64,000 nt of DNA from a virus, in IMG/VR virus record IMGVR_UViG_3300032092_000011, positions 32,001-96,000 of that record; one strand, 5' to 3'. The notes beneath the pieces are model-generated. The model was not told where the DNA came from and did no database searches. It saw nothing but the letters and a program-made list of their open reading frames with translations. Position 1 is the stretch's first letter. Each line of letters opens with the position of its first letter. Both the position numbers and the translations under genes were made by a program. Positions 31,727 to 56,790 of this stretch are shown here, one piece after another.

Positions 31727-32473
31727 CTATATATTTTGCATAGATTGTTTAAACTCGGCAAGTCTCTTTTGAAACTCAGCGAAATAGTATTTTATGTCTT
31801 TTTCTGTCAATGTGAATATCTGCGGACATTCATCAATCTCATTAGCAATCCAAATTTCAGCGCCCATTGGTCGAATTCCAGTTCTTTCCCAAAATGCAAC
31901 GAAATAGGCTGCGGCCTGTAGATAATAATCTTGAATCCAATCATCTTTCTTAGGCTTTCGGCTATTTTTATAGTCAATAATAAGTACTCTTTGATTTATC
32001 AATCTTGAAACATTATCGACTGTTCCAGCATATCCACCACCCTTAATAGACCATAAGAATTTTTCAGCGGCTAAAACCTCTTCAATCTTATCAAAAAACT
32101 GATCATGATTGTTCCAAAACTTCATAAAGAATTTTAAGCCTTCTTCAATGAATTCTACATCAAATTTCTTGATTTCTCGATCTTTATATAAAACCTTTCT
32201 TAATTCACCTAGTCTTTCCTCTTTAGAACCCTTTATTTGCTTGTATAATTCTATAAGACGGTGCATAACAGTTCCCCTGTTTGCTGAAAGTGTTGAGATT
32301 CTATTAGCCTCTTCTTCTCCAACTCTCTGTCTCCATGAATCTAAACCAGACTGATCACTGGTTCCACCAAGAACCGTGGTTACAGACGGAAAGAGGCCAA
32401 GAATTTCTTTGCCTCTTTTGACTTGGTAAAACCTTTTACCCTTTATTTCAACTCGTTTGATTGTTTCACTCAT
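31727..32473 (-). CDS. PD-(D/E)XK exonuclease (Cas4/lambda-exo-like phage exonuclease)
   Basis: PSVTTVL, RGTVMHRLIE, YAGTVD, IIDYK, YYLQAAAY. Confidence 0.85.
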   Translation of the reverse strand: MSETIKRVEIKGKRFYQVKRGKEILGLFPSVTTVLGGTSDQSGLDSWRQRVGEEEANRISTLSANRGTVMHRLIELYKQIKGSKEERLGELRKVLYKDREIKKFDVEFIEEGLKFFMKFWNNHDQFFDKIEEVLAAEKFLWSIKGGGYAGTVDNVSRLINQRVLIIDYKNSRKPKKDDWIQDYYLQAAAYFVAFWERTGIRPMGAEIWIANEIDECPQIFTLTEKDIKYYFAEFQKRLAEFKQSMQNI

Positions 32474-42236: not shown

Positions 42237-42255
42237 ATAAACATATTGGCATTTG

Positions 42256-42329
42256 TGATCCCGTCAGGATTCGAACCTGAGACCTACTGCTTAGAAGGCA
42301 GTTGCTCTATCCAGCTGAGCTACGAGACC
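42256..42329 (-). tRNA. tRNA-Arg(UCU)
   Basis: Cloverleaf; ACTGC-CTTCTAA-GCAGT. Confidence 0.95.
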
Positions 42330-42364
42330 ATTTTGTAAAAATACATTATCGTTCTCTAACGAGT

Positions 42365-42652
42365 TTATTTTTTATTCTTTACAGGATCGCAACCGTTTTT
42401 GATTGTGTCCATTAATCTTGACTCTAATTTGTCTAATCTTGAATCTAATTGAGAATGTGTATTACTCTCTAATTCATCTACTCTGCGATTAATATCGTTT
42501 CGAAGGTCTTCAATTTCAAGATATAAATCTTGACTTGTGCGTTCTAATTCTTTTTCTGTTTTTCGTGCCTTAAAGAATCCAACAACAGCAACTACTGCTA
42601 ATGCAATAACCACCACCGATGACATCCCTAAAACAAATGATGTTGTTTCCAT
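42365..42652 (-). CDS. TM plus coiled-coil protein embedded between tRNAs
   Basis: N-terminal TM; flanked by a 13-bp inverted repeat. Confidence 0.75.
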   Translation of the reverse strand: METTSFVLGMSSVVVIALAVVAVVGFFKARKTEKELERTSQDLYLEIEDLRNDINRRVDELESNTHSQLDSRLDKLESRLMDTIKNGCDPVKNKK

Positions 42653-42690
42653 AATCTTTATGTTTTTTTATGTCAAAGAACGATAATGTG

Positions 42691-42763
42691 AGCTTCCGAC
42701 AGGAATCGAACCTGCAACCTATTGATTACAAATCAATTGCTCTACCTATTGAGCTACAGAAGC
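42691..42763 (-). tRNA. tRNA-Thr(UGU)
   Basis: ATTGA-TTTGTAA-TCAAT. Confidence 0.95.
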
Positions 42764-42792
42764 ATAAATATATAATAACATATTATATATTC

Positions 42793-43242
42793 TTAATAAT
42801 GAAGGTCGATGAAAAGAAGGTCTTGCTCGTCTTCGTAAAAGACTGGTGACCAAGCTGGATGGTATTGTTCTAAAAGCTTAGAATCTTTTAGGTCTTGTAT
42901 ATATTGTTCTGGATCTTCGATTCCAGGATATTCAGGTTCTTCTCCATTTTTGCGTTTCTCAACTTCTTCCCTCATCTTGATATTTAATTCTTCAGCTTCA
43001 TAGAATGCATATCCTTTTTTTGGATAAACTCCCCATCCTTCTGCTTTGGTTCCAGGTGGATAAGTTCCTCCATCTGAAGTTTGCATACCAGAAATATCAA
43101 TGCCTTCAAAATACTTATCTTCTACACGTTGAATCATAATCTTAGCGGTCAATGGAATGTTACGTTCTTCAATAAATTCAAGTAAATCTTGAACTGTCAT
43201 TCCTTGACTTTCAATTATTTCATTTTTACCAATTATCCTCAT
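42793..43242 (-). CDS. hypothetical protein
   Basis: 149-aa ORF. Confidence 0.7.
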   Translation of the reverse strand: MRIIGKNEIIESQGMTVQDLLEFIEERNIPLTAKIMIQRVEDKYFEGIDISGMQTSDGGTYPPGTKAEGWGVYPKKGYAFYEAEELNIKMREEVEKRKNGEEPEYPGIEDPEQYIQDLKDSKLLEQYHPAWSPVFYEDEQDLLFIDLHY

Positions 43243-43258
43243 TAGAATTAAATATTTG

Positions 43259-43341
43259 TACCTCAGGAGAGACTCGAACTCTCAATGTCTTACGACGCTA
43301 GATCCTAAGTCTAGTGTGTCTACCAATTCCACCACCAAGGC
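43259..43341 (-). tRNA. tRNA-Leu(UAG)
   Basis: CTAGA-CTTAGGA-TCTAG; long variable arm. Confidence 0.95.
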
Positions 43342-43419: not shown

Positions 43420-43632
43420 TTACTTAGCGGAAGGTGCCAATGTAGTTGGAGAAACACCAGGAGCAGCAGGATCAACTGTTACAGTTGAATCTGTTGATGT
43501 AGAATCAGTTACTACAGCAGTAGAATCAACAGCAGTTGAATCTGAACCAGTTGTAGCAGTTCCGCTACCATTACCACAAGATGTCAATCCAATTACCATT
43601 GCGATTGCGAAAAGAAAAGTGTACTTTTTCAT
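43420..43632 (-). CDS. small Thr/Ser-rich lipoprotein
   Basis: MKK + hydrophobic + LTSC lipobox; DST repeats. Confidence 0.8.
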   Translation of the reverse strand: MKKYTFLFAIAMVIGLTSCGNGSGTATTGSDSTAVDSTAVVTDSTSTDSTVTVDPAAPGVSPTTLAPSAK

Positions 43633-43660
43633 GTTTTTGTTATTTTTTGTTTATTTGATA

Positions 43661-43689
43661 ATTATATAGGGTACTTAATCTTTGTTTCA
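43661..43689 (-). promoter_or_regulatory. class II promoter TGAAAC-N17-TATAAT
   Basis: Exact motif; upstream of the lipoprotein and the distal tRNA cluster. Confidence 0.7.
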
Positions 43690-43692
43690 AGT

Positions 43693-46644: not shown

Positions 46645-46693
46645 AGTAATTTACACAATTTTTATTTCTTTATATATTTCTAATATAAAATTG

Positions 46694-46766
46694 AGCGGAA
46701 GACGAGATTCGAACTCGCGACCCCAACCTTGGCAAGGTTGTGCTCTACCAGCTGAGCTACTTCCGC
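46694..46766 (-). tRNA. tRNA-Gly(GCC)
   Basis: CAACC-TTGCCAA-GGTTG. Confidence 0.95.
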
Positions 46767-48109: not shown

Positions 48110-48186
48110 TGGCGGCTCGTACGGGACTCGAACCCGTGACCTTCGCCGTGACAGGGCGACATTGTAACCAACTCTACTAACGAGCC
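48110..48186 (-). tRNA. tRNA-Asp(GUC), CCA encoded
   Basis: TCGCC-CTGTCAC-GGCGA. Confidence 0.95.
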
Positions 48187-48192
48187 AAATAG

Positions 48193-48266
48193 TAGACAAT
48201 GATGGACTCGAACCATCGACCTCCTCGGTATCAGCGAGGCGCTCTAACCAACTGAGCTAAATGTCT
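48193..48266 (-). tRNA. tRNA-Ile(GAU)
   Basis: CCTCG-CTGATAC-CGAGG. Confidence 0.95.
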
Positions 48267-48386
48267 AAATATGAGAGGTCTCCGATGCCTCCTCTCGCGG
48301 TGGATATTTAATGACGTTTTGTATAATGCTGTATCAGCAAGTCGCAAGTTCCACTTATACGTCAAACTCGAATCGGTATTAAGGTG

Positions 48387-48458
48387 TAGCCCGTACGAGA
48401 ATCGAACTCGTCTCTCATCCGTGAAAGGGATGCGTCCTAACCGATAGACTAACGGGCC
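48387..48458 (-). tRNA. tRNA-Glu(UUC)
   Basis: CATCC-CTTTCAC-GGATG. Confidence 0.95.
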
Positions 48459-48465
48459 AAATTTG

Positions 48466-48537
48466 CTCCCCGGGTAGGATTTGAACCTACGACCACACGA
48501 TTAACAGTCGCGTGCTCTACCACTGAGCTACCGAGGA
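48466..48537 (-). tRNA. tRNA-Asn(GUU)
   Basis: CGCGA-CTGTTAA-TCGTG. Confidence 0.95.
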
Positions 48538-48547
48538 ATAAAATAAA

Positions 48548-48730
48548 TCTTCCATGCGCATTAACATGGTCAAGAAGTAACCGATGGTTTGTTCCCCATC
48601 GCCTGATGCCGTGCACAGCAGAGCAGGGTCTCCTACATAGCAACTCGGGGCATGATTACTCTCAATAAAGGTTGCGATCCTGCGAGAGCCGAGTTCCCTT
48701 TCAACGGTGCTAATCCGTCCTATGTGAGAT
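48548..48730 (-). ncRNA. candidate ~185-nt multi-stem ncRNA
   Basis: GC-rich spacer; ACATAG/CTATGT, AACTCGG/CCGAGTT, CTCTC/GAGAG, CGATGG/CCATCG and CCATG/CATGG stems. Confidence 0.55.
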
Positions 48731-48737
48731 TTATTCG

Positions 48738-48811
48738 TGGAGGATATCGGATTCGAACCGATGACCCCTTGCGTGCAAGGCAAGTGCTCTAGCCAACTGA
48801 GCTAATCCCCC
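48738..48811 (-). tRNA. tRNA-Ala(UGC)
   Basis: CTTGC-CTTGCAC-GCAAG. Confidence 0.95.
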
Positions 48812-48874
48812 GAAAAGAGTTAGGATCTGAGTCTTACGATACCTAGGATTCTTCTGCTCCATCCATACTCTCTT

Positions 48875-48950
<76 letters not shown>

Positions 48951-48958
48951 ATATATTG

Positions 48959-49029
48959 TTGTCCCCGAAGGATTCGAACCTCCACTAGATGGACCAAAAC
49001 CATCTGTCCTGCCATTAGACGAGAGGACA
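48959..49029 (-). tRNA. tRNA-Gln(UUG)
   Basis: GATGG-TTTTGGT-CCATC. Confidence 0.95.
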
Positions 49030-49035
49030 AGATAC

Positions 49036-49093
49036 TGGATGCGCTTGTGTCAAAGTTAAAGTTTGATTTTGTAAAATTTGCTGCATGCATCCA
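49036..49093 (-). ncRNA. CAGCAAA-scaffold ncRNA, copy 4 (anticodon-like hairpin cargo)
   Basis: TGGATGC-ATGCAGCAAAT-...TCAAA CTTTAAC TTTGA...-GCATCCA. Confidence 0.65.
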
Positions 49094-49099
49094 AAATTC

Positions 49100-49432
49100 T
49101 TATTGCTCTTCCGATATGTCAAAGATCGATTTGCCTTTTTTAGTCATAAAGATAATGTCTTCACCATTAGCATCTTCAACCCAATCAATTAGTCCATCTT
49201 CTTTCATTTGGTCTAATTCTTGATTAAATCTTGCTTTAAAAAAAGCATATTCAAATTGCTCTTCAGTCATTTGAAATTCTTCTCCTTTTGTAAAACATTC
49301 GAAGAATATTTCAGAAATAGATTCAACTAAATATTCAGGAGTTGGATCTTCTTCTTGCAATGTTGGTTTAAGTAATTCAACAACATTTTCAGCTTCAACT
49401 CTGACTTTCTGTGGCCAATTTGTTTTTTCCAT
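49100..49432 (-). CDS. acidic hypothetical protein (winged-helix-like C-terminus)
   Basis: GLIDW...IFMTKKG. Confidence 0.7.
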   Translation of the reverse strand: MEKTNWPQKVRVEAENVVELLKPTLQEEDPTPEYLVESISEIFFECFTKGEEFQMTEEQFEYAFFKARFNQELDQMKEDGLIDWVEDANGEDIIFMTKKGKSIFDISEEQ

Positions 49433-49434
49433 TG

Positions 49435-49701
49435 TTATTTTATAATGAATACTCGATAAGGTTTCATGAGTGTCAATTTAGAACCATCTGAATTGTAGTA
49501 CCAAATAGAATCTTCATTCTGACCATAAATTGTATCAGTGTACGCGATTGCTGGTCTAAGTTCTTCTGTAACATTAATCTCAGTCAAGCCAACTTGACGC
49601 TCGATTCTAGTTGGAACCATTCCTTCAATCTTGTACTTATATTCTTTACCTTTACATGAAAAGAAAAGAATTGATAAACCTATTGCATAAATTACTTTCA
49701 T
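49435..49701 (-). CDS. small lipoprotein
   Basis: Start moved to MKVIYAIGLSILFFSC (the upstream part overlaps a tRNA). Confidence 0.75.
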   Translation of the reverse strand: MKVIYAIGLSILFFSCKGKEYKYKIEGMVPTRIERQVGLTEINVTEELRPAIAYTDTIYGQNEDSIWYYNSDGSKLTLMKPYRVFIIK

Positions 49702-49713
49702 CTTATAAAATTT

Positions 49714-49802
49714 TGGTACTCGAGGCGGGAATCGAACCCGCACGAACCTTACGGTCCATCAGATTTTAAGTCTGACGTGTCTACCTATTCCACCACCCGA
49801 GC
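49714..49802 (-). tRNA. tRNA-Leu(UAA), CCA encoded
   Basis: TCAGA-CTTAAAA-TCTGA; long variable arm. Confidence 0.95.
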
Positions 49803-49886: not shown

Positions 49887-52800
49887 TTATCCGCAATAAA
49901 GATAACCGTAGATTCCAGTTGCCTTACCTTCACTATCAAAAGTACAATCTTCCATACATTTACCCAATGTAAATGAATTTATAGTTTGTCTTTCCTCGTA
50001 TTGAGGTGTTCCATTGTCAAATCCAATAATGACATATTCAACTGGTTGTTTCATTGCGTATCCTGGTACGTCAGAAGAACATAGTAAATCTCCTTTTAGA
50101 ACTGGACCATTTTGGTTACATACTTTTATACCTTGTAATCCTGTTTTAGCATCGAATGAATCTCCTAATGAAGCAACTCTCCATATACTTTTTTGATTTC
50201 TGTCCGCCAATGGTATTTTATTTCCAAATGAATCTCTATATTGATAATCTTTTTCTGAAGTATCTTTTCCATTTATTAAGAATCTATCTAATGGACTTTC
50301 CTGTATAGAAAAATCAACTTCTTGCCATAAAATACCAACAATTGCCGGGTCTTTTGCAGAAGATGCTTTAACTAATTCATTGTTTCCATCTAATTTAACA
50401 AGATCTCCAACTTCTAATATAACATCATTTCTTTTAGTATATTGGTGAGACAATGTTGTTGCTATTGCTTCTCCATATGGTTGCTCACGAGGATCTGTAC
50501 CTCCTCTGTAATTTACATAGTCATCTGCGAGTAATTCAAAATCTTGTTGATATTGAATAAAATTAGTTTTCGTTGATTCAAAATCAGTTTTAAAAGCACC
50601 AAATCTTGTAGTTCCAATGTACGCATCATTTCTCATTTTAAGCATTTGACGTGCACCTAATTCCGGATCTTCAACGATGTCAACTTCAAAGAAATCATTC
50701 ATTGGACTTCCGCCTACCGTAGCACCTGAAGTAATATCAATATCTCCTTTAAATGCTGCGGTACCGTCTGGTGCAATATAGAAGTTTTTAGCATTGATTG
50801 CACCTAGATCTAAGTTAATACCCATACCAGCCGTAGAATAAGTATTCCATGCTGATGTGTGATTTGCTGGGAAGTTACCATTCTTAATTATACCAGTAGT
50901 TATCTTTCCACCATCAATAGTAGTGGATGTTGTTAAAAACTGAGAAGTATCTGGAGCTGGACCTTGTGGACCTGTGGCTCCCTGAATAGATTTTGCAAAA
51001 CTTTGAGTTTTAGTAAAGCTAAAACTTGCACCATTTGCTCTTTTTCCAGAAATCGTGTATGTTATCGATGCTGTATTAGCTGTCATATTATTATGATCGC
51101 CAATCGTTGCATAATTACCGCTATCAGTAATACTTCCCGGAGTAATTGAACTACCTGTTCTTGTTAAAGTCCATCTACTAGCAGAGGTTCCTGATCCATC
51201 ATAAATTAATTCAGTAGCTCCTTCATATAATCTTATGGTAGTTCCTGAACCAGTATAAGTAACAACACCAGCACTAGTTGTAGGTAAAGTATGCGCTTCA
51301 TTACTAAGAATTACTGTCATACCATCAGTACCAGGTGCTCCATCGATACCATTAACGCCATCAACTCCGTCTCTACCATTAACGCCATCAACTCCGTCTC
51401 TACCATTAGTACCATTAGTACCATTAGCACCATTAGTACCATTAGTTCCTGGTTTAATTCCAGACATTGTGATTTGGTCACGTGCTAAAACTGTACCTGT
51501 TGTACCGCCTTCTCTAATCTGTACTTCTATTTTGTCAGGCATACTGTCAAAACTAGATTGTGGAGTATATGTGTATGTTGTAGAAGTACCATTTTGAACA
51601 GATACATCATTTTTAAAGAATTGATAATATACAGTTCCGCTTGTATTTAAAGCAGCTGCAGTAATTGTAGTGCTTGTAGGAGATGGAGTTGTTCCAGAAG
51701 TATTATATACAAATACCTGATCTACACAAGTTAGGTTTACAGCTCTTGCATTTGCTCCAGCTGCACCGTCTGCTCCGTCTGCACCGTCAACACCATTAGC
51801 ACCTTGAATAGATTTTGCAAAACTTTGAGTTTTAGTAAAGCTAAAGCTTGTACCATTTGCTCTTTTTCCAGTAATAGCATACACTATAGAAGCTACGTTA
51901 GCAGTCATGTTGCTGTGATCGCCAATCGTTGCATAATTACCGCTATCAGTAATACTTCCCGGAGTAATTGAACTCCCTGTTCTTGTTAAAGTCCATTTAC
52001 CAGCGGTAGAACCAGATCCATCATAGACTAATTCAGTAGCGCCTTCATATAATCTTATAGTAGTTCCTGAACCAGCATATGTAACTGTTCCTGTGTTTGT
52101 TGTTGGCAGAGTATGTGCTTCATTACTAAGAATTACTGTCATACCATCAGTACCAGGTGCTCCATCGATACCATTAACGCCATCAACTCCGTCTCTACCA
52201 TCAGTACCATCAGTACCATTAGTTCCTGGTTTAATTCCAGACATTGTGATTTGGTCACGTGCTAAAACTGTGCCTGTTGTACCGCCTTCTCTAATCTGTA
52301 CTTCTATCTTGTCAGGCATGCTAGCAAAACTAGATTGTGGAGTATATGTGTATGTTGATGCTGTCCCATTTTGAACAGATACATCATTTTTAAAGAATTG
52401 ATAATATACAGTTCCGCTTGTATTTAAAGCAGCGGCTGTTATTACTGAACTAACTGGTGAAGGATTTGTTCCGGACGCATCATATACAAATACCTGATCT
52501 ACGCAAGTTAGGTTTACGGCTCTTGCATTTGCTCCAGCTGAACCGTCTGCTCCGTCTGCTCCGTCAACACCGTCAGCTCCTTTGACTAAAACCCAATTAT
52601 AAAGTGATGAATCTGTTGAATCAGCTTCGGTAAAATCAGTATAAGTTCCCATATACTCTCTACCAGTCGGATCGCTTACGCTAAAATCAATAATTTGATT
52701 GCTGCCATTTTTATTTGCATATGCAATATGTAAATATGAAGTTTGTCCATCAACACCATTAACACCAGGAAGACCATTCTCACCATTAGCTCCATCAGCA

Positions 52801-54854
52801 CCTTTAACTAATTGCCATTTCCATAAAGTACTTCCAGATGGTGCATCAGCAGCGGTTGTATCAACATAAGTACCTATGTATAATTTTCCGGCTGCGTTTT
52901 GACTAAAGCCTCCTCCAGAAGCATTGTCAGCATATGCAATGTGAAAATACGTTGAAACACCATCAGCGCCAGGAGCACCAGGAAGACCATCTGCACCGTC
53001 TAAACCATTAGTACCTGGGGCACCTTGTGGGCCAGGAGCTCCATCTACACCATTAGTACCAGCAGGACCTTGTGGACCGGCAGAAAAACTAACAGCTCCA
53101 TTAAATGCAACTTGTCCATCGATAATAGAGAATGGAGTTAATAATTGTCCATTTGGACCTCCAGTAGATACTTTAAAAGAATCTGCTGTAAATGAAATTG
53201 AACTACCTGTTTCATCAGCTCCTAATCTCATTCCAGCAACATTACCATCAGCATTTACTTCTAGAGTATATTGTGCATTTACTTTATTAGTAAGAGCATT
53301 AATATCAGCACTCATTGATTGAGTTACTCCAGCAGTTTGTTCTTCTAATTCTGCTATTAAATTAGTTGTTGAAGTTACAGTTGCTTGATTAGCAGTTGCA
53401 ATTGCTGAATCAATAACTGTTTTAAGAGCAGAAGACTGGCTAAAACCAGTTATTGATCCATTATCTATTGTATATTGTGCTTCTAGTGTATTTAATCTAG
53501 TTACAGTTGCTCCATCACCATTACTTAAAGAAGCAATCTCTTCACTAATATTTGTTAATGCCTCTGCTCTAATAGCAGCTTCTCCAGCAATTGCTTCAGC
53601 AATATCAACTTCGAATTGCGTACCTAAATTAGTAACTGAAAGAGCAACGGCTTCATTAGCAGTTGTTAATGCGGATATTGAACTTTCAACTCCTGCAATT
53701 GCCTGTGTTCTTAAAAGATTTTGATTATCTTCTAGGTCTGTTAAATCACTTGCAAATGAAGCACTTAAATTAGTTACTGCTTGTGCAGTTGCTGAATTAG
53801 CATCATTTAACGTAGTCAATGTTTGATTTATACTGGAAATTGCTGATGTTCTTGCTTGAGTTTCAATTCCTAAAAGTCGTGCTCTTTCAGCAGCTTCTTC
53901 AGCAATAGCACTAACTCTTTCAGCAGCTTCTGCTTCTAAATCTTCAATTGTTGCTAATCCAGTTAAATCAGCACCTGGAATTGAACTTACAGCACTTTGA
54001 ATTGCTGATGTTCTAGCCAATACTTCAGCTGCTAGAGCATTTTGTCTTGCTAATGCTTCAGTTGAAATTGCTCCAGTAATTTCACTAGTAAAAGATGTGC
54101 TTAAATCCGTAACTGATTGCGCAGTTGCTTCATTAGCATTAGATAGTGAAGTTAAAGTTTGATTAATATCTGAAATTGCAGATATTCTTAATGCTGCTTC
54201 AGAACTAACAGCAGCTTCAATTTCAGCTTCAAAAGAAGTATTTATATTATTTACTGTTTCGGCAAGAGCTTCATTAGCATTAGATAATGAAGTTATAGTT
54301 TGATTTATATTTGAAATTGCAGCTGTTCTTGCTAATGTTTCAGCGCCAACTGCTGTTTCAATTTCAGCTTCAAAAGAAGTATTTATATTATTTACAGTTT
54401 GTGCGAGTGCTGAATTTGAATTAGCTAATGTTGTTAATTGACTAGTTACGCTTGTTAATGCTTGTGTTCTAGCTGTTGTTTCTAAACCAATAACTCGGGC
54501 TCTTTCAGCTGCTTCTTCTAATAATCTACTATTAGTAACTAATTCATTACCATTAACTTGCATATTACCATTAGCCATGCTAATTGAATTTGATCCAAGA
54601 TAGATTGTGCTGTTACTTAAGTAAATATCTCTAAATCTTAGAGTTGGCGTACCTAAATCATGAATTTCATTTTGATCAGGTATAATACTAAATGCAACTT
54701 GTCCATTAAAAGACGAACCAGTCCCGCCTTCAAAACCATCAAGTAGTTCAGAAATTTCAGTAAGTTGCTGATTAATTGCAGCAAAATTATCGTTAAGCGT
54801 TTTACGCGAATCTTTTATACCATCGGTTCCTAGTAGTGGTGTTATTGAAGCCAT
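49887..54854 (-). CDS. mosaic tail fibre / host-specificity protein
   Basis: Coiled-coil repeats; lambda J/DUF1983-like YTLEVNADGNVAGMRLG..FTADSF; HIAYA..GTY repeats; collagen linkers; C-terminal NQNGPVLKGDLLCSSDVPGYAMKQ chaperone-like domain. Confidence 0.8.
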   Translation of the reverse strand: MASITPLLGTDGIKDSRKTLNDNFAAINQQLTEISELLDGFEGGTGSSFNGQVAFSIIPDQNEIHDLGTPTLRFRDIYLSNSTIYLGSNSISMANGNMQVNGNELVTNSRLLEEAAERARVIGLETTARTQALTSVTSQLTTLANSNSALAQTVNNINTSFEAEIETAVGAETLARTAAISNINQTITSLSNANEALAETVNNINTSFEAEIEAAVSSEAALRISAISDINQTLTSLSNANEATAQSVTDLSTSFTSEITGAISTEALARQNALAAEVLARTSAIQSAVSSIPGADLTGLATIEDLEAEAAERVSAIAEEAAERARLLGIETQARTSAISSINQTLTTLNDANSATAQAVTNLSASFASDLTDLEDNQNLLRTQAIAGVESSISALTTANEAVALSVTNLGTQFEVDIAEAIAGEAAIRAEALTNISEEIASLSNGDGATVTRLNTLEAQYTIDNGSITGFSQSSALKTVIDSAIATANQATVTSTTNLIAELEEQTAGVTQSMSADINALTNKVNAQYTLEVNADGNVAGMRLGADETGSSISFTADSFKVSTGGPNGQLLTPFSIIDGQVAFNGAVSFSAGPQGPAGTNGVDGAPGPQGAPGTNGLDGADGLPGAPGADGVSTYFHIAYADNASGGGFSQNAAGKLYIGTYVDTTAADAPSGSTLWKWQLVKGADGANGENGLPGVNGVDGQTSYLHIAYANKNGSNQIIDFSVSDPTGREYMGTYTDFTEADSTDSSLYNWVLVKGADGVDGADGADGSAGANARAVNLTCVDQVFVYDASGTNPSPVSSVITAAALNTSGTVYYQFFKNDVSVQNGTASTYTYTPQSSFASMPDKIEVQIREGGTTGTVLARDQITMSGIKPGTNGTDGTDGRDGVDGVNGIDGAPGTDGMTVILSNEAHTLPTTNTGTVTYAGSGTTIRLYEGATELVYDGSGSTAGKWTLTRTGSSITPGSITDSGNYATIGDHSNMTANVASIVYAITGKRANGTSFSFTKTQSFAKSIQGANGVDGADGADGAAGANARAVNLTCVDQVFVYNTSGTTPSPTSTTITAAALNTSGTVYYQFFKNDVSVQNGTSTTYTYTPQSSFDSMPDKIEVQIREGGTTGTVLARDQITMSGIKPGTNGTNGANGTNGTNGRDGVDGVNGRDGVDGVNGIDGAPGTDGMTVILSNEAHTLPTTSAGVVTYTGSGTTIRLYEGATELIYDGSGTSASRWTLTRTGSSITPGSITDSGNYATIGDHNNMTANTASITYTISGKRANGASFSFTKTQSFAKSIQGATGPQGPAPDTSQFLTTSTTIDGGKITTGIIKNGNFPANHTSAWNTYSTAGMGINLDLGAINAKNFYIAPDGTAAFKGDIDITSGATVGGSPMNDFFEVDIVEDPELGARQMLKMRNDAYIGTTRFGAFKTDFESTKTNFIQYQQDFELLADDYVNYRGGTDPREQPYGEAIATTLSHQYTKRNDVILEVGDLVKLDGNNELVKASSAKDPAIVGILWQEVDFSIQESPLDRFLINGKDTSEKDYQYRDSFGNKIPLADRNQKSIWRVASLGDSFDAKTGLQGIKVCNQNGPVLKGDLLCSSDVPGYAMKQPVEYVIIGFDNGTPQYEERQTINSFTLGKCMEDCTFDSEGKATGIYGYLYCG
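50984..52570 (-). repeat. internal tandem duplication (~0.8 kb, 2 copies) in the fibre gene
   Basis: GANARAVNLTCVDQVFVY...KTQSFAKSIQG block repeated with high DNA identity. Confidence 0.85.
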
Positions 54855-54905
54855 TTCTTAGTTATTTTATATTTTAAATATCGTATTATATATTTAGTTT
54901 TTTTG

Positions 54906-54990
54906 CGGAAGCTACAGGATTCGAACCTGTGGGACCGTGAAGTCCGCCACTTTAGCAAAGTGGCACGATAGACCGCTCTGACAAACTTCC
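54906..54990 (-). tRNA. tRNA-Ser(GCU)
   Basis: CCACT-TTGCTAA-AGTGG; long variable arm. Confidence 0.93.
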
Positions 54991-54992
54991 AA

Positions 54993-55069
54993 TGGGGTGA
55001 CCAGTGGGGATCGAACCCACGACAACTAGAACCACAATCTAGTGCTCTACCAACTGAGCTATGGCCACC
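54993..55069 (-). tRNA. tRNA-His(GUG), G-1 and CCA encoded
   Basis: CTAGA-TTGTGGT-TCTAG. Confidence 0.95.
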
Positions 55070-55074
55070 ATGTG

Positions 55075-55149
55075 TTGCGAGACCGGGACTCGAACCCGGA
55101 ACTTCGGCTTATGAGACCGACGAGATAACCATTTTCTACGCATCTCGCA
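55075..55149 (-). tRNA. tRNA-Met(CAU)
   Basis: TCGGT-CTCATAA-GCCGA. Confidence 0.88.
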
Positions 55150-55156
55150 ATATAAT

Positions 55157-55286
55157 AAAAAGAGGTTTCGGGTCTTTCAGGGTTACTGATTATTAATGTT
55201 AAGGAGATGGGTGCACTGTCTACTCTAAACCCTTTTTCGACCTTTTTCCATCTAATTAATAATTACAGCTTCACTACCTCTTTTTT
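55157..55286 (-). ncRNA. candidate rod-shaped ncRNA with internal bubbles (6S-like shape)
   Basis: Nested stems AAAAGAGGT/ACCTCTTTT, ATTATTAAT/ATTAATAAT and AGATGG/CCATCT. Confidence 0.5.
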
Positions 55287-55287
55287 G

Positions 55288-55359
55288 TAGTCAATAAAGG
55301 ATTCGAACCCTTATCTCTTGATCCGTAGTCAAGTGTTCTATCCGTTGAACTAATCGACT
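55288..55359 (-). tRNA. tRNA-Arg(ACG)
   Basis: CTTGA-CTACGGA-TCAAG. Confidence 0.95.
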
Positions 55360-55367
55360 AAATTATG

Positions 55368-55441
55368 TGGACCAGCCTGGGCTCGAACCAGGGACCTACG
55401 CATTATGAGTGCGGTGCTCTAACCAACTGAGCTACAAGTCC
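55368..55441 (-). tRNA. tRNA(CAU), probably Ile2 (lysidine)
   Basis: CGCA-CTCATAA-TGCG; Ile-type body GGACTTG..CTGGTCCA; third CAU tRNA in the window. Confidence 0.8.
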
Positions 55442-55447
55442 ATTTTG

Positions 55448-55518
55448 CACGGGTGGAGAGATTCGAACTCCCATCGACGGTTTTGGAGACCGGAATGCTA
55501 CCATTGCACCACACCCGT
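55448..55518 (-). tRNA. tRNA-Trp(CCA)
   Basis: CGGT-CTCCAAA-ACCG. Confidence 0.93.
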
Positions 55519-55521
55519 AAA

Positions 55522-55659
55522 TTAAGGAAAAGAGAAGATGGTTCAGTGGACATCTCTTTTTACAATCGGCTTTACTTTGGTTTATACCTGCAAACTCCGA
55601 TAATAACGATCAGTATAAACTCTTGAATCATAGTTATTATCATTCCCCGATTAACCTTA
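55522..55659 (-). ncRNA. candidate multi-stem ncRNA
   Basis: TAAGG/CCTTA, AATCGG/CCGATT, GATAATAAC/GTTATTATC and AGATG/CATCT stems. Confidence 0.5.
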
Positions 55660-55660
55660 G

Positions 55661-55742
55661 TGCCTGCAGAAGGACTCGAACCTCCGAACCCGTAAGGGAG
55701 CTGATTTACAGTCAGCTGCAATTGCCGCTATGCGATACAGGC
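55661..55742 (-). tRNA. tRNA-Tyr(GUA)
   Basis: GCTGA-CTGTAAA-TCAGC. Confidence 0.95.
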
Positions 55743-55814
55743 AAATTCCAATTTTGATGGGCTCATCTGATAATATGTTTCAATTACCCAGCACTTGAGA
55801 TTGGGAACTCCTAG

Positions 55815-55889
55815 TACATCTTGAAGGATTCGAACCTCCGACCCTCTCGGTGTAAACGAGATGCTCTAAACCAACTGAGCTAAAGATGC
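55815..55889 (-). tRNA. tRNA-Val(UAC)
   Basis: TCTCG-TTTACAC-CGAGA. Confidence 0.95.
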
Positions 55890-55894
55890 ATGGC

Positions 55895-55988
55895 GCTTCA
55901 TATTATTCACAATTGATAATCATATTGGATTATCCACTCAAACTTACGACAGCTTTTAACTGAGAGATCGTAAGATTGTGTATGAAGC
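55895..55988 (-). ncRNA. candidate structured spacer RNA
   Basis: GCTTCATA/TATGAAGC closing helix; CTTACGA/TCGTAAG and GATAATC/GATTATC stems. Confidence 0.5.
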
Positions 55989-55993
55989 ATGTG

Positions 55994-56067
55994 TGACCCC
56001 GACAAGATTCGAACTTGTGACTCCCTCATTAAAAGTGAGGTGCTCTAGCCAACTGAGCTACGAGGTC
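55994..56067 (-). tRNA. tRNA-Lys(UUU)
   Basis: CCTCA-CTTTTAA-TGAGG. Confidence 0.95.
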
Positions 56068-56161
56068 AAATTTCGTCTTTTCCTTACCGCTTACTATTCA
56101 CATTGCCAGTCCGAAGTTACTGTCGGATGCTTACTTCTTTCGAAGAGTCAATAGTACATTG

Positions 56162-56233
56162 AGCAGGTAGAGAGAATCGAACTCTCATCTCCAGATTGGA
56201 AGTCTGGAGTAATAGCCGTTATACGATACCTGC
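56162..56233 (-). tRNA. tRNA-Gly(UCC)
   Basis: CCAGA-CTTCCAA-TCTGG. Confidence 0.95.
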
Positions 56234-56239
56234 TTGTTG

Positions 56240-56315
56240 TCGGATAGGCAAGATTCGAACTTGCGTGCTCTGCATCCCAAATGCAGCGAGATAAACCTAA
56301 CTCCTCTACTATCCG
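56240..56315 (-). tRNA. tRNA-Pro(UGG)
   Basis: CTGCA-TTTGGGA-TGCAG. Confidence 0.93.
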
Positions 56316-56324
56316 TTTATTTTG

Positions 56325-56397
56325 TGGTGCGGGGCAGGATCGAACTGCCGACACCAGGATTTTCAGTCCTGTGCTCTACCTACTGAGCTACCGCACC
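56325..56397 (-). tRNA. tRNA-Phe(GAA)
   Basis: CAGGA-CTGAAAA-TCCTG. Confidence 0.95.
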
Positions 56398-56403
56398 AAG
56401 TTG

Positions 56404-56473
56404 AGTACAAGGTTGGAATCGAACCAACTCCGCAGATTTTGCAGACCTGCTGGCCTCCAAGACCAACTCGTAC
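56404..56473 (-). tRNA. tRNA-Cys(GCA)
   Basis: GCAGG-TCTGCAAAA-TCTGC region with GCA anticodon; short D-arm. Confidence 0.88.
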
Positions 56474-56486
56474 TTTTTTTGCCAAT

Positions 56487-56498
56487 ATGTCAAAGAAC
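56487..56498 (-). promoter_or_regulatory. boxA-like antitermination element
   Basis: GTTCTTTGACAT just before the first tRNA; identical copy at 42670-42681. Confidence 0.6.
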
Positions 56499-56516
56499 TC
56501 TTGTTCCTAAAACTTT

Positions 56517-56560
56517 ATGCTAATATAAACAAAAAGTTTCAAATAAAAAAATATTTCAAA
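56517..56560 (-). promoter_or_regulatory. class I promoter variant for the tRNA array
   Basis: TTTTTATTTGAAACTTTTTGTTTATATTAGCAT. Confidence 0.55.
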
Positions 56561-56583: not shown

Positions 56584-56615
56584 AAAAAAAGCTCGACTTT
56601 TAACGGTCGAGCTTT
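56584..56615 (-). terminator. attenuator terminator hairpin
   Basis: AAAGCTCGAC-cgttaaaa-GTCGAGCTTTTTTT. Confidence 0.9.
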
Positions 56616-56644
56616 CTTGTTAGGATATATGAATATTCAAACTG

Positions 56645-56737
56645 TTACAAGAGAGCCCGCCCACGATCACATGCGCCATACGGTTTAACGCTAAACCATA
56701 AATTCATGTTTTCGATATGTTGCCCTATTCGTTGCAT
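56645..56737 (-). CDS. leader (attenuator) peptide of the tRNA operon (missing from the ORF track)
   Basis: MQRIGQHIENMNLWFSVKPYGACDRGRALL*; its 3' end pairs 14/16 with the terminator 5' arm. Confidence 0.85.
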   Translation of the reverse strand: MQRIGQHIENMNLWFSVKPYGACDRGRALL

Positions 56738-56757
56738 TAGTTTGTTATTTTTGTAGT

Positions 56758-56786
56758 ATTATAATCTATATATCGGTATTGTTTCA
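56758..56786 (-). promoter_or_regulatory. class II promoter TGAAAC-N17-TATAAT (with embedded GATATATA) for the leader
   Basis: Exact motif about 20 nt upstream of the leader ATG. Confidence 0.7.
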
Positions 56787-56790
56787 AAAA

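Follow-up and report, generated by a model that had tools for sequence, protein, structure and literature searches.

The attenuators of amino-acid operons, such as trpL, hisL and the multivalent leaders of thr and ilvGMEDA in enterobacteria, combine a short translated leader ORF with an intrinsic terminator and with mutually exclusive pairings between four RNA segments (1:2, 2:3 and 3:4); a ribosome that terminates at their stop codon hides segment 2. The genes regulated in this way encode biosynthetic enzymes, and the classical leaders contain runs of a single codon. In the pyrBI and pyrE attenuators, read-through is set by the closeness of the ribosome to the polymerase in a leader ORF that runs through the terminator, which the ribosome melts. 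In rRNA operons, BoxA-dependent antitermination (NusB/NusE) serves long untranslated arrays of stable RNA. The purpose and expression of phage tRNA genes have been debated for decades. Ideas put forward for them include codon compensation, replacement of a decaying host tRNA pool and escape from anticodon nucleases (PMC10264068). For Flavobacterium, leader-peptide attenuation has been proposed for amino-acid operons, and translation initiation is independent of Shine-Dalgarno motifs (PMC9723704). The literature that we searched contains no description of leader-peptide control of tRNA genes, in agreement with the first-pass annotation of this DNA, which knew of no such system.

Here we describe a cassette of about 200 nt from a phage of Bacteroidota that is probably a trp-type, translation-coupled transcription attenuator gating the phage tRNA genes. 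It has in common with the leaders of amino-acid operons the short ORF, the exclusive 2:3 and 3:4 pairings, a putative 1:2 pairing, the intrinsic terminator and a stop codon placed for masking of segment 2. It differs from them in that the genes it would regulate encode tRNAs, in that its ORF, free of single-codon runs, covers 19 amino acids with roughly one codon apiece, chosen among those read by phage tRNAs, and in that it belongs to a Bacteroidota phage and has a BoxA behind the terminator. This BoxA is the same 18-mer as in the rRNA operons and likewise precedes a long untranslated stable-RNA array, but it is phage-borne, lies behind a terminator and a leader ORF, and is a putative binding site of Nus factors. 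As in the pyr leaders, read-through would depend on how closely the ribosome follows the polymerase, whereas here the ORF stops 26-29 nt before the terminator.

Layout of the locus, host setting and promoter-like sites

The window is a 64,000-nt stretch of a 109.8-kb phage genome (IMG/VR record IMGVR_UViG_3300032092_000011, positions 32,001 to 96,000); its own locus is labeled WIN and other loci carry L-numbers. On the minus strand, a promoter-like site is followed by a 30-codon ORF, a 26-29-nt spacer, a terminator, about 85 nt of further sequence, a BoxA-type 18-mer and a tRNA-Cys gene (Table 1). The coordinates and sequences from which the first-pass annotation had started (ORF, diverse stretch, promoter-like site, 14/16 pairing and terminator) were all correct on recheck. 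The tRNA array that it had placed behind the terminator was also borne out: tRNA-Cys at 56473 opens a tightly packed block of 13 tRNA genes reaching to 54905, and the window holds 25 tRNA genes. Upstream of the leader are genes for an endolysin-like protein, a spanin-like protein, a PAP2 phosphatase and a functionally uncharacterized 72-residue protein. Between the first and second tRNA blocks lies a gene for a 1655-residue protein (49887-54854, minus strand) that contains two long duplications within its sequence as well as collagen-like Gly-X-Y runs and is probably a tail fibre.

Table 1 Features of the leader region and tRNA array, and leader ORFs of the second group of unrelated loci. Positions are those of the window unless a locus is named.
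Feature	Position	Strand	Remarks
Promoter-like site TTGAAAC-N17-TATAAT	56758..56787	-	Putative function
Leader ORF, 30 codons + TAA stop	56645..56737	-	ATG at 56737, stop 56647-56645
Segment 1: 5' UTR, start codon, codons 1-5	56722..56746	-	MFE structures; weak covariation
Central 9-bp hairpin, codons 13-20	56679..56700	-	MFE folds, consensus pairs
Segment 2: last codons + stop codon	56646..56662	-	Complementary to terminator 5' arm
Segment 3: terminator 5' arm (56618..56606) + two bases upstream, one downstream	56605..56620	-	
Segment 4: terminator 3' arm + U run	56584..56597	-	
BoxA-type 18-mer	56482..56499	-	Identical to 16S-23S spacer BoxA of Bacteroidota rRNA operons
First tRNA block, 13 genes, Cys to Ser	54905..56473	-	ARAGORN and Rfam
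Further tRNA blocks	49802..48110 and 46766..46693		ARAGORN and Rfam
Distal three tRNAs	43341..42255		ARAGORN and Rfam
Second-group leader ORFs, 35-36 codons	L156:10593-10697; L164:6700-6807; L168:2947-3051; L184:4669-4776; L194:1627-1731		

The 18-mer, which was absent from the first-pass account of the locus, is an exact match to a sequence of the 16S-23S spacer of Bacteroidota rRNA operons, and by the BoxA consensus we take it to be a BoxA-containing antitermination sequence. It occurs in more than 120 bacterial contigs, nearly all of them from Bacteroidota, and maps between the spacer tRNA and the 23S rRNA in the five loci checked. Since the rRNA-spacer match is almost confined to Bacteroidota, the host is a member of this group, in which initiation of translation proceeds without Shine-Dalgarno sequences. 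A Shine-Dalgarno-like motif precedes 6 of the 107 long ORFs of the genome, 102 of which lie on one strand, and the start context of the leader ORF is A-rich, as is typical of Bacteroidota. The 18-mer is also carried by more than 110 contigs of uncultured phages in IMG/VR, in many cases immediately 5' of tRNAs or other structured RNAs; many of the carriers are human-gut contigs. A tRNA starts within 80 nt after it in 20 of 86 distinct phage contexts, as against a single case of a tRNA after it in 120 bacterial loci, which makes the cassette a phage feature. An 11-nt BoxA core is found at 42671-42681 (minus strand) as well, just after the tRNA-Thr of the distal group.

Homologous loci were retrieved through the 72-residue neighbour, and scans with its alignment gave 130 loci. 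A tRNA array directly behind this gene is restricted to the closest relatives (at least 68% identity), and all of those with enough downstream sequence carry the leader ORF, except L004. In this 71%-identical relative a single tRNA (L004:3248-3320) comes right after the 72-residue gene; ARAGORN calls it tRNA-Pyl (CUA anticodon, amber-suppressor type), and a TTGAAAC-N18-TATAAT site with a very short ORF follows. The leader ORF is present in five homologous loci, each time between the 72-residue gene and tRNA-Cys, in four to five distinct variants (WIN, L001, L064, and L058 and L057). The BoxA 18-mer is invariant among them and lies 3' of the terminator, just before tRNA-Cys.

The TTGAAAC-N17-TATAAT site is the top sigma-70-type match within 6 kb (11 of 12 positions), and with spacers of 14-20 nt the motif occurs three times in the window, where 0.07 are expected. 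TGAAAC as a fixed -35 element was set aside, as the spacing differs between WIN and L064 (17 nt) and L001 and L058 (26 nt). The 18-nt core of the promoter-like site (56774..56757) is identical across the homologous loci (alignment A2) except for L057, with one change inside the TATAAT hexamer, and it recurs with two to four mismatches before at least five other minus-strand genes. The core ATATATAGAnTATAAnA lies 15-35 nt 5' of the start codons of several such genes (window 31735, 25346 and 20905; genome 109565 and 15367) and may mark a phage-specific promoter class, differing from the TAnnTTTG type of the host. In the stretch 43420-43690 (minus strand), a second TTGAAAC-N17-TATAAT site precedes a 70-residue Thr/Ser-rich, lipoprotein-like ORF whose end lies directly in front of the distal tRNA-Leu(UAG). 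The diverse stretch of the main leader lacks only Thr.

Between the terminator and BoxA, no host promoter of the Bacteroidota type (TAnnTTTG) was recognized by eye. In L001, L064 and L058 the distance from the terminator to tRNA-Cys is only 35-55 nt, including BoxA, and contains no conserved promoter. Because the invariant BoxA fills this gap, the nearest promoter of the array in these loci is the one before the leader; three of the four lineages have no further promoter-like site between the terminator and the tRNA genes. WIN alone has an insert of about 60 nt between the terminator and BoxA, with a further TTGAAAC-type motif (56543..56512, minus strand), a possible bypass promoter of the tRNA array.

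Coding selection and alternative pairings of the leader

Comparison of the homologous sequences indicates that the leader ORF is under coding selection. Its indels (-3 and +6 nt) are all in frame and its replacements are mostly synonymous, including a three-base change between the Arg codons CGG and AGA, and dN/dS is 0.19-0.36, as compared with 0.13-0.31 for the neighbouring gene. The leader dS is lower than that of the neighbour, suggesting an added constraint at the RNA level.

The terminator (56618..56584) consists of a 13-bp hairpin and a U run, with a free energy of -16.6 kcal/mol, and its stem shows two compensatory double changes among the homologues. The ORF tail (56662..56647) can alternatively pair with 56620..56605, with an RNAduplex energy of -17.0 kcal/mol that nearly equals the value of the terminator hairpin; a 2:3 pairing of this strength has P=0.002 relative to random genome windows. 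At the homologous place the pairing amounts to about -18 kcal/mol in L001, -14.1 kcal/mol in L058 and -9.5 kcal/mol in L064. When the unrelated leaders L134, L148 and L193 (described below) are included with these three loci and WIN, the energies range from -9.5 to about -18 kcal/mol and the P values from 0.0006 to 0.036. Exchanging tails and arms between leaders gave weaker pairs than the native combinations (P=0.0004, for rows that are not independent of one another). Column-wise covariation of the 2:3 helix among the five sequences of the family was no better than in shuffles.

In transcripts cut before the 3' arm of the terminator, the 2:3 helix is the MFE structure, and it vanishes when the A site of a ribosome is placed on the last 7-13 codons (codons 24-31 in WIN). 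For WIN, L001 and L058, the truncated transcript also adopts the 2:3 helix when no ribosome is placed on it. Equilibrium folding of the full transcript under a ribosome mask gave no switch in WIN, L064 or L058, the terminator having a probability of about 0.96 at every ribosome position. Given that the terminator is always favoured at equilibrium, a switch would have to be kinetic, as it is in the classical trp leader. The first-pass annotation had proposed the geometry of the trp and his attenuators, to be checked by folding with and without a ribosome footprint. Selection on the ORF and 2:3 pairing in the family and in three unrelated leaders agree with this geometry, and a switch appears in the folds of truncated transcripts but not at full-transcript equilibrium. 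The spacing between the stop codon and the terminator is 26-30 nt in the WIN family, despite ORF tails that differ by 2 to 8 codons, and 24-36 nt outside it. Segment 2 ends 9-13 nt before the stop codon in L001 and L058, so that a terminating ribosome would leave this segment partly uncovered.

In the fold of the full-length leader, the terminator is accompanied by a long imperfect hairpin that spans the ORF and in which segment 1 pairs with the 3' end of the ORF. This 1:2 pairing is present in the full-length MFE folds and is clear in L064, L148 and L193. The central 9-bp hairpin forms the apex and may act as a pause hairpin; all five sequences retain its pairs, apart from one that is broken in L057, and L058 shows wobble changes. 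Together with the reduced dS, the conservation of this hairpin and the folding z-scores (-4.85 for the 201-nt region and -2.9 for the ORF alone) could fit a structured non-coding RNA, either an sRNA or an element for the processing of tRNA precursors, in which the open frame is incidental. We regard this as very improbable, since every indel is in frame, the changes are mostly synonymous (even the three-base Arg-to-Arg change), much of the z-score stems from the terminator, and a search of the region against Rfam returned the tRNAs only.

A wider survey of phages started from the 86 distinct contexts of the BoxA 18-mer in IMG/VR contigs. Fourteen of them have a terminator at most 220 nt upstream, each with a 22-38-codon ORF ending shortly before it, and they fall into two groups. 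The search for short ORFs upstream of phage tRNA arrays that the first-pass annotation had suggested did recover the same layout in three unrelated uncultured phage contigs. In these, the first group (L134, L148 and L193), the sequences are unrelated to WIN, yet the ORF tail repeats the sequence of the 3' arm of its terminator (with a 9-nt identity in L148), giving 2:3 pairings of -12.9 to -16.8 kcal/mol. In L148 and L193, segment 1 moreover resembles segment 3, which completes the 1:2, 2:3 and 3:4 design, and the promoters are of the textbook Bacteroidota form (TTG-N19-TAnnTTTG). The second group, the leader ORFs of which are listed in Table 1, retains the ORF, the terminator, BoxA and the tRNA array. 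A search for an antiterminator in this group yielded none that was convincing (2:3 pairings of only -5 to -8 kcal/mol, P 0.08-0.37); the tails pair instead with the region of the start codon. The reading frame is kept in the second group, with dN/dS values of about 1 or above.

The main rival reading takes the ORF for an ordinary small-protein gene that has a promoter and a leaky terminator of its own and lies before the tRNA genes by chance. The array would then be expressed from a different start or through constitutive read-through, and the complementarity would be without function. We consider this unlikely. The tail matches the terminator arm in seven of seven leaders (the WIN family plus L134, L148 and L193) although their sequences differ, and in three lineages BoxA lies 3' of the terminator with no promoter in between. 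The codon adaptation of the leader is very poor (2nd percentile), unlike that of a highly expressed protein gene, and its codons fit the phage tRNA set (see below). Values of dN/dS near 1 or above with a maintained frame, as in the second group, do not suit a folded protein. Nor was a wider family of the peptide found: Pfam (E up to 10) and PHROGs gave no family match, and a profile search of 1.84 billion protein representatives returned only two true leader peptides, so that the family looks narrow by sequence, confined to its clade. In the cultured-phage collection, DNA and protein searches found no relatives of the region, of the neighbouring gene or of any leader peptide, and the matches of the 30-residue peptide were at chance level (E of 2 or more). 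On the other hand, a small-protein gene would account for the protein-like dN/dS of the WIN family, for the 14 invariant positions of the peptide alignment (A3), for a pattern (His near position 7, Trp-x-Phe and Ser-Arg-Ala-Leu/Phe) that weakly links the WIN family to the other leaders, for the second group without an antiterminator and for the predominance of the terminator at equilibrium.

Residue diversity and codon choice

Codons 6-25 of the leader specify 19 different amino acids, Thr alone being missing, and this diversity exceeds chance. A scan of all six frames of the genome, with 76,026 stop-free windows of 20 codons, found 18 or 19 different residues in the leader ORF only; the real genes of the phage have at most 17 per 20 codons, and none of 2 million random peptides drawn at phage residue frequencies contained 19. 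For uniform usage, the chance had been put at about 4e-6 in the first-pass annotation, and our independent calculation gave 4.4e-6. The L064 peptide, which differs from that of WIN by 10 replacements and one deletion, nevertheless has the identical set of 19 residues within 20 codons (P 0.005 to 0.0007 under random replacement). A near-complete amino-acid set is not a conserved property: the best 20-codon windows of L058 and L057 contain 16 and 15 different residues, respectively, both without Glu, Arg and Thr, and the other leaders contain 15-17, placing them in the top 2-6% of short ORFs. Of the two features expected to be conserved together, the 2:3 pairing is found in the whole family, and maximal diversity is lost in L058 and L057.

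The codons of the WIN leader were also compared with the phage tRNA set. Of the 22 proximal phage tRNAs, 21 have a codon that they can read among codons 1-25, as against none of the three distal tRNAs (Thr, Arg-UCU and Leu-UAG), with a joint P of about 0.004 when the peptide is fixed and synonymous codons are redrawn from phage usage. Windows of real genes match on average 11 of the 22 proximal tRNAs, and 17 at most. Both Gly tRNAs (via rare codons), both Ile types and the sole Ser tRNA (via AGC) are among those matched; the Val match relies on U:U wobble only. All second-group leaders are devoid of Asp, Glu and Gly, and exactly these three tRNAs are missing from the contiguous arrays behind L156, L168 and L184. 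A strict match between leader residues and all tRNA isotypes of a locus was not found; the correspondence is restricted to the contiguous array behind the leader and does not occur in every phage. L134 has no Cys or Arg codon, though both tRNAs are in its array, and an L057-type leader with 17 residues has no Glu codon although tRNA-Glu is present among the 12 tRNA genes found on its contig, which is partial (estimated 21% complete). The leader therefore appears to tend to sample the codons of its own tRNA set, which in the WIN phage is nearly complete. Sensing of practically all tRNAs, as first envisaged, is supported insofar as the diversity is beyond chance and kept in L064; it falls short in that the codons fit the proximal phage tRNAs rather than all tRNAs, and in that L058 and L057 are less diverse.

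The peptide is more conserved than a pure codon sampler would need, which fits a nascent-peptide arrest leader working on the TnaC/SecM principle. Conserved Trp-Phe and Arg-Ala residues would then stall the ribosome on one signal, the ribosome held there would decide between terminator and antiterminator, and the diversity would be a by-product. Nearly all leaders have Trp followed by an aromatic residue (adjacent or one position later) at positions 14-20, presumably resembling the Trp-Phe core of TnaC, and Ser-Arg-Ala-Leu/Phe recurs near the C terminus. These systems and ours have in common a short leader in which a Trp-aromatic motif is conserved and behind which termination is decided. The leaders differ from them in having an intrinsic rather than a Rho-dependent terminator, no match to a Pfam leader family (E up to 10), no C-terminal Pro, which together with Trp and Asp at fixed spacing marks the Tna leader family, and a distance from Trp to the stop codon that varies from 12 to 21 residues. 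Moreover, arrest on one signal leaves unexplained the 19-residue set retained in L064 and the codon match to phage tRNAs, and residues of the second group change freely. An arrest leader thus seems quite unlikely to us.

A proposed attenuator of phage tRNA genes

We return to the trp-type attenuator as the favoured reading. The anatomy of the locus, the coding selection, the alternative pairings, the identity of BoxA and the codon match make up the demonstrated part of this model. We infer that the ORF is translated in vivo, and likewise the switch itself, its direction and its trigger. From the phage promoter, a short transcript would be made, the first 90 nt of which would be the translated leader ORF. 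Segment 2 would pair either with segment 1, at the 5' end of the ORF, or with segment 3, the 5' arm of the terminator. If translation proceeds smoothly to the stop codon, the ribosome would cover segment 2, the 3:4 terminator would form and the polymerase would halt before the tRNA genes. If the ribosome lags within roughly codons 1-22, segment 2 would be free to capture segment 3, no terminator would form and the polymerase would read through. It would then reach the host-type BoxA, presumably be made termination-resistant as in rRNA operons, and transcribe the untranslated tRNA array. With about one codon per amino acid, read by the proximal tRNAs of the phage, the signal would be slow decoding of any such codon, and the leader would act as a supply sensor for the tRNA set under its control. 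With one codon per amino acid, the gain would be lower than that of classical leaders with their codon runs.

As a more tentative generalization, which we hold to be possible but not the likelier outcome, phages of Bacteroidota might run a tRNA-supply homeostat, in which the leader has one codon per array tRNA, any slow codon turns the array on and BoxA carries the polymerase through it. It could be triggered when the host tRNA pool decays in the course of infection or, by conjecture, when anticodon nucleases of the host cleave tRNAs. Such a homeostat would be the first known attenuator acting on tRNA genes, and the first designed for simultaneous sensing of many tRNAs.

If the attenuator operates as proposed, a cis-acting sensor would couple transcription of the array to decoding speed, such that phage tRNAs would be made on demand, and the cassette would offer a direct read-out of the tRNAs that limit infection. 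It could double as a natural biosensor of translation stress, small and easily tested with reporters in Flavobacterium or Bacteroides. Leader-peptide attenuation would then extend from amino-acid biosynthesis to stable-RNA genes, with a "one codon each" design.
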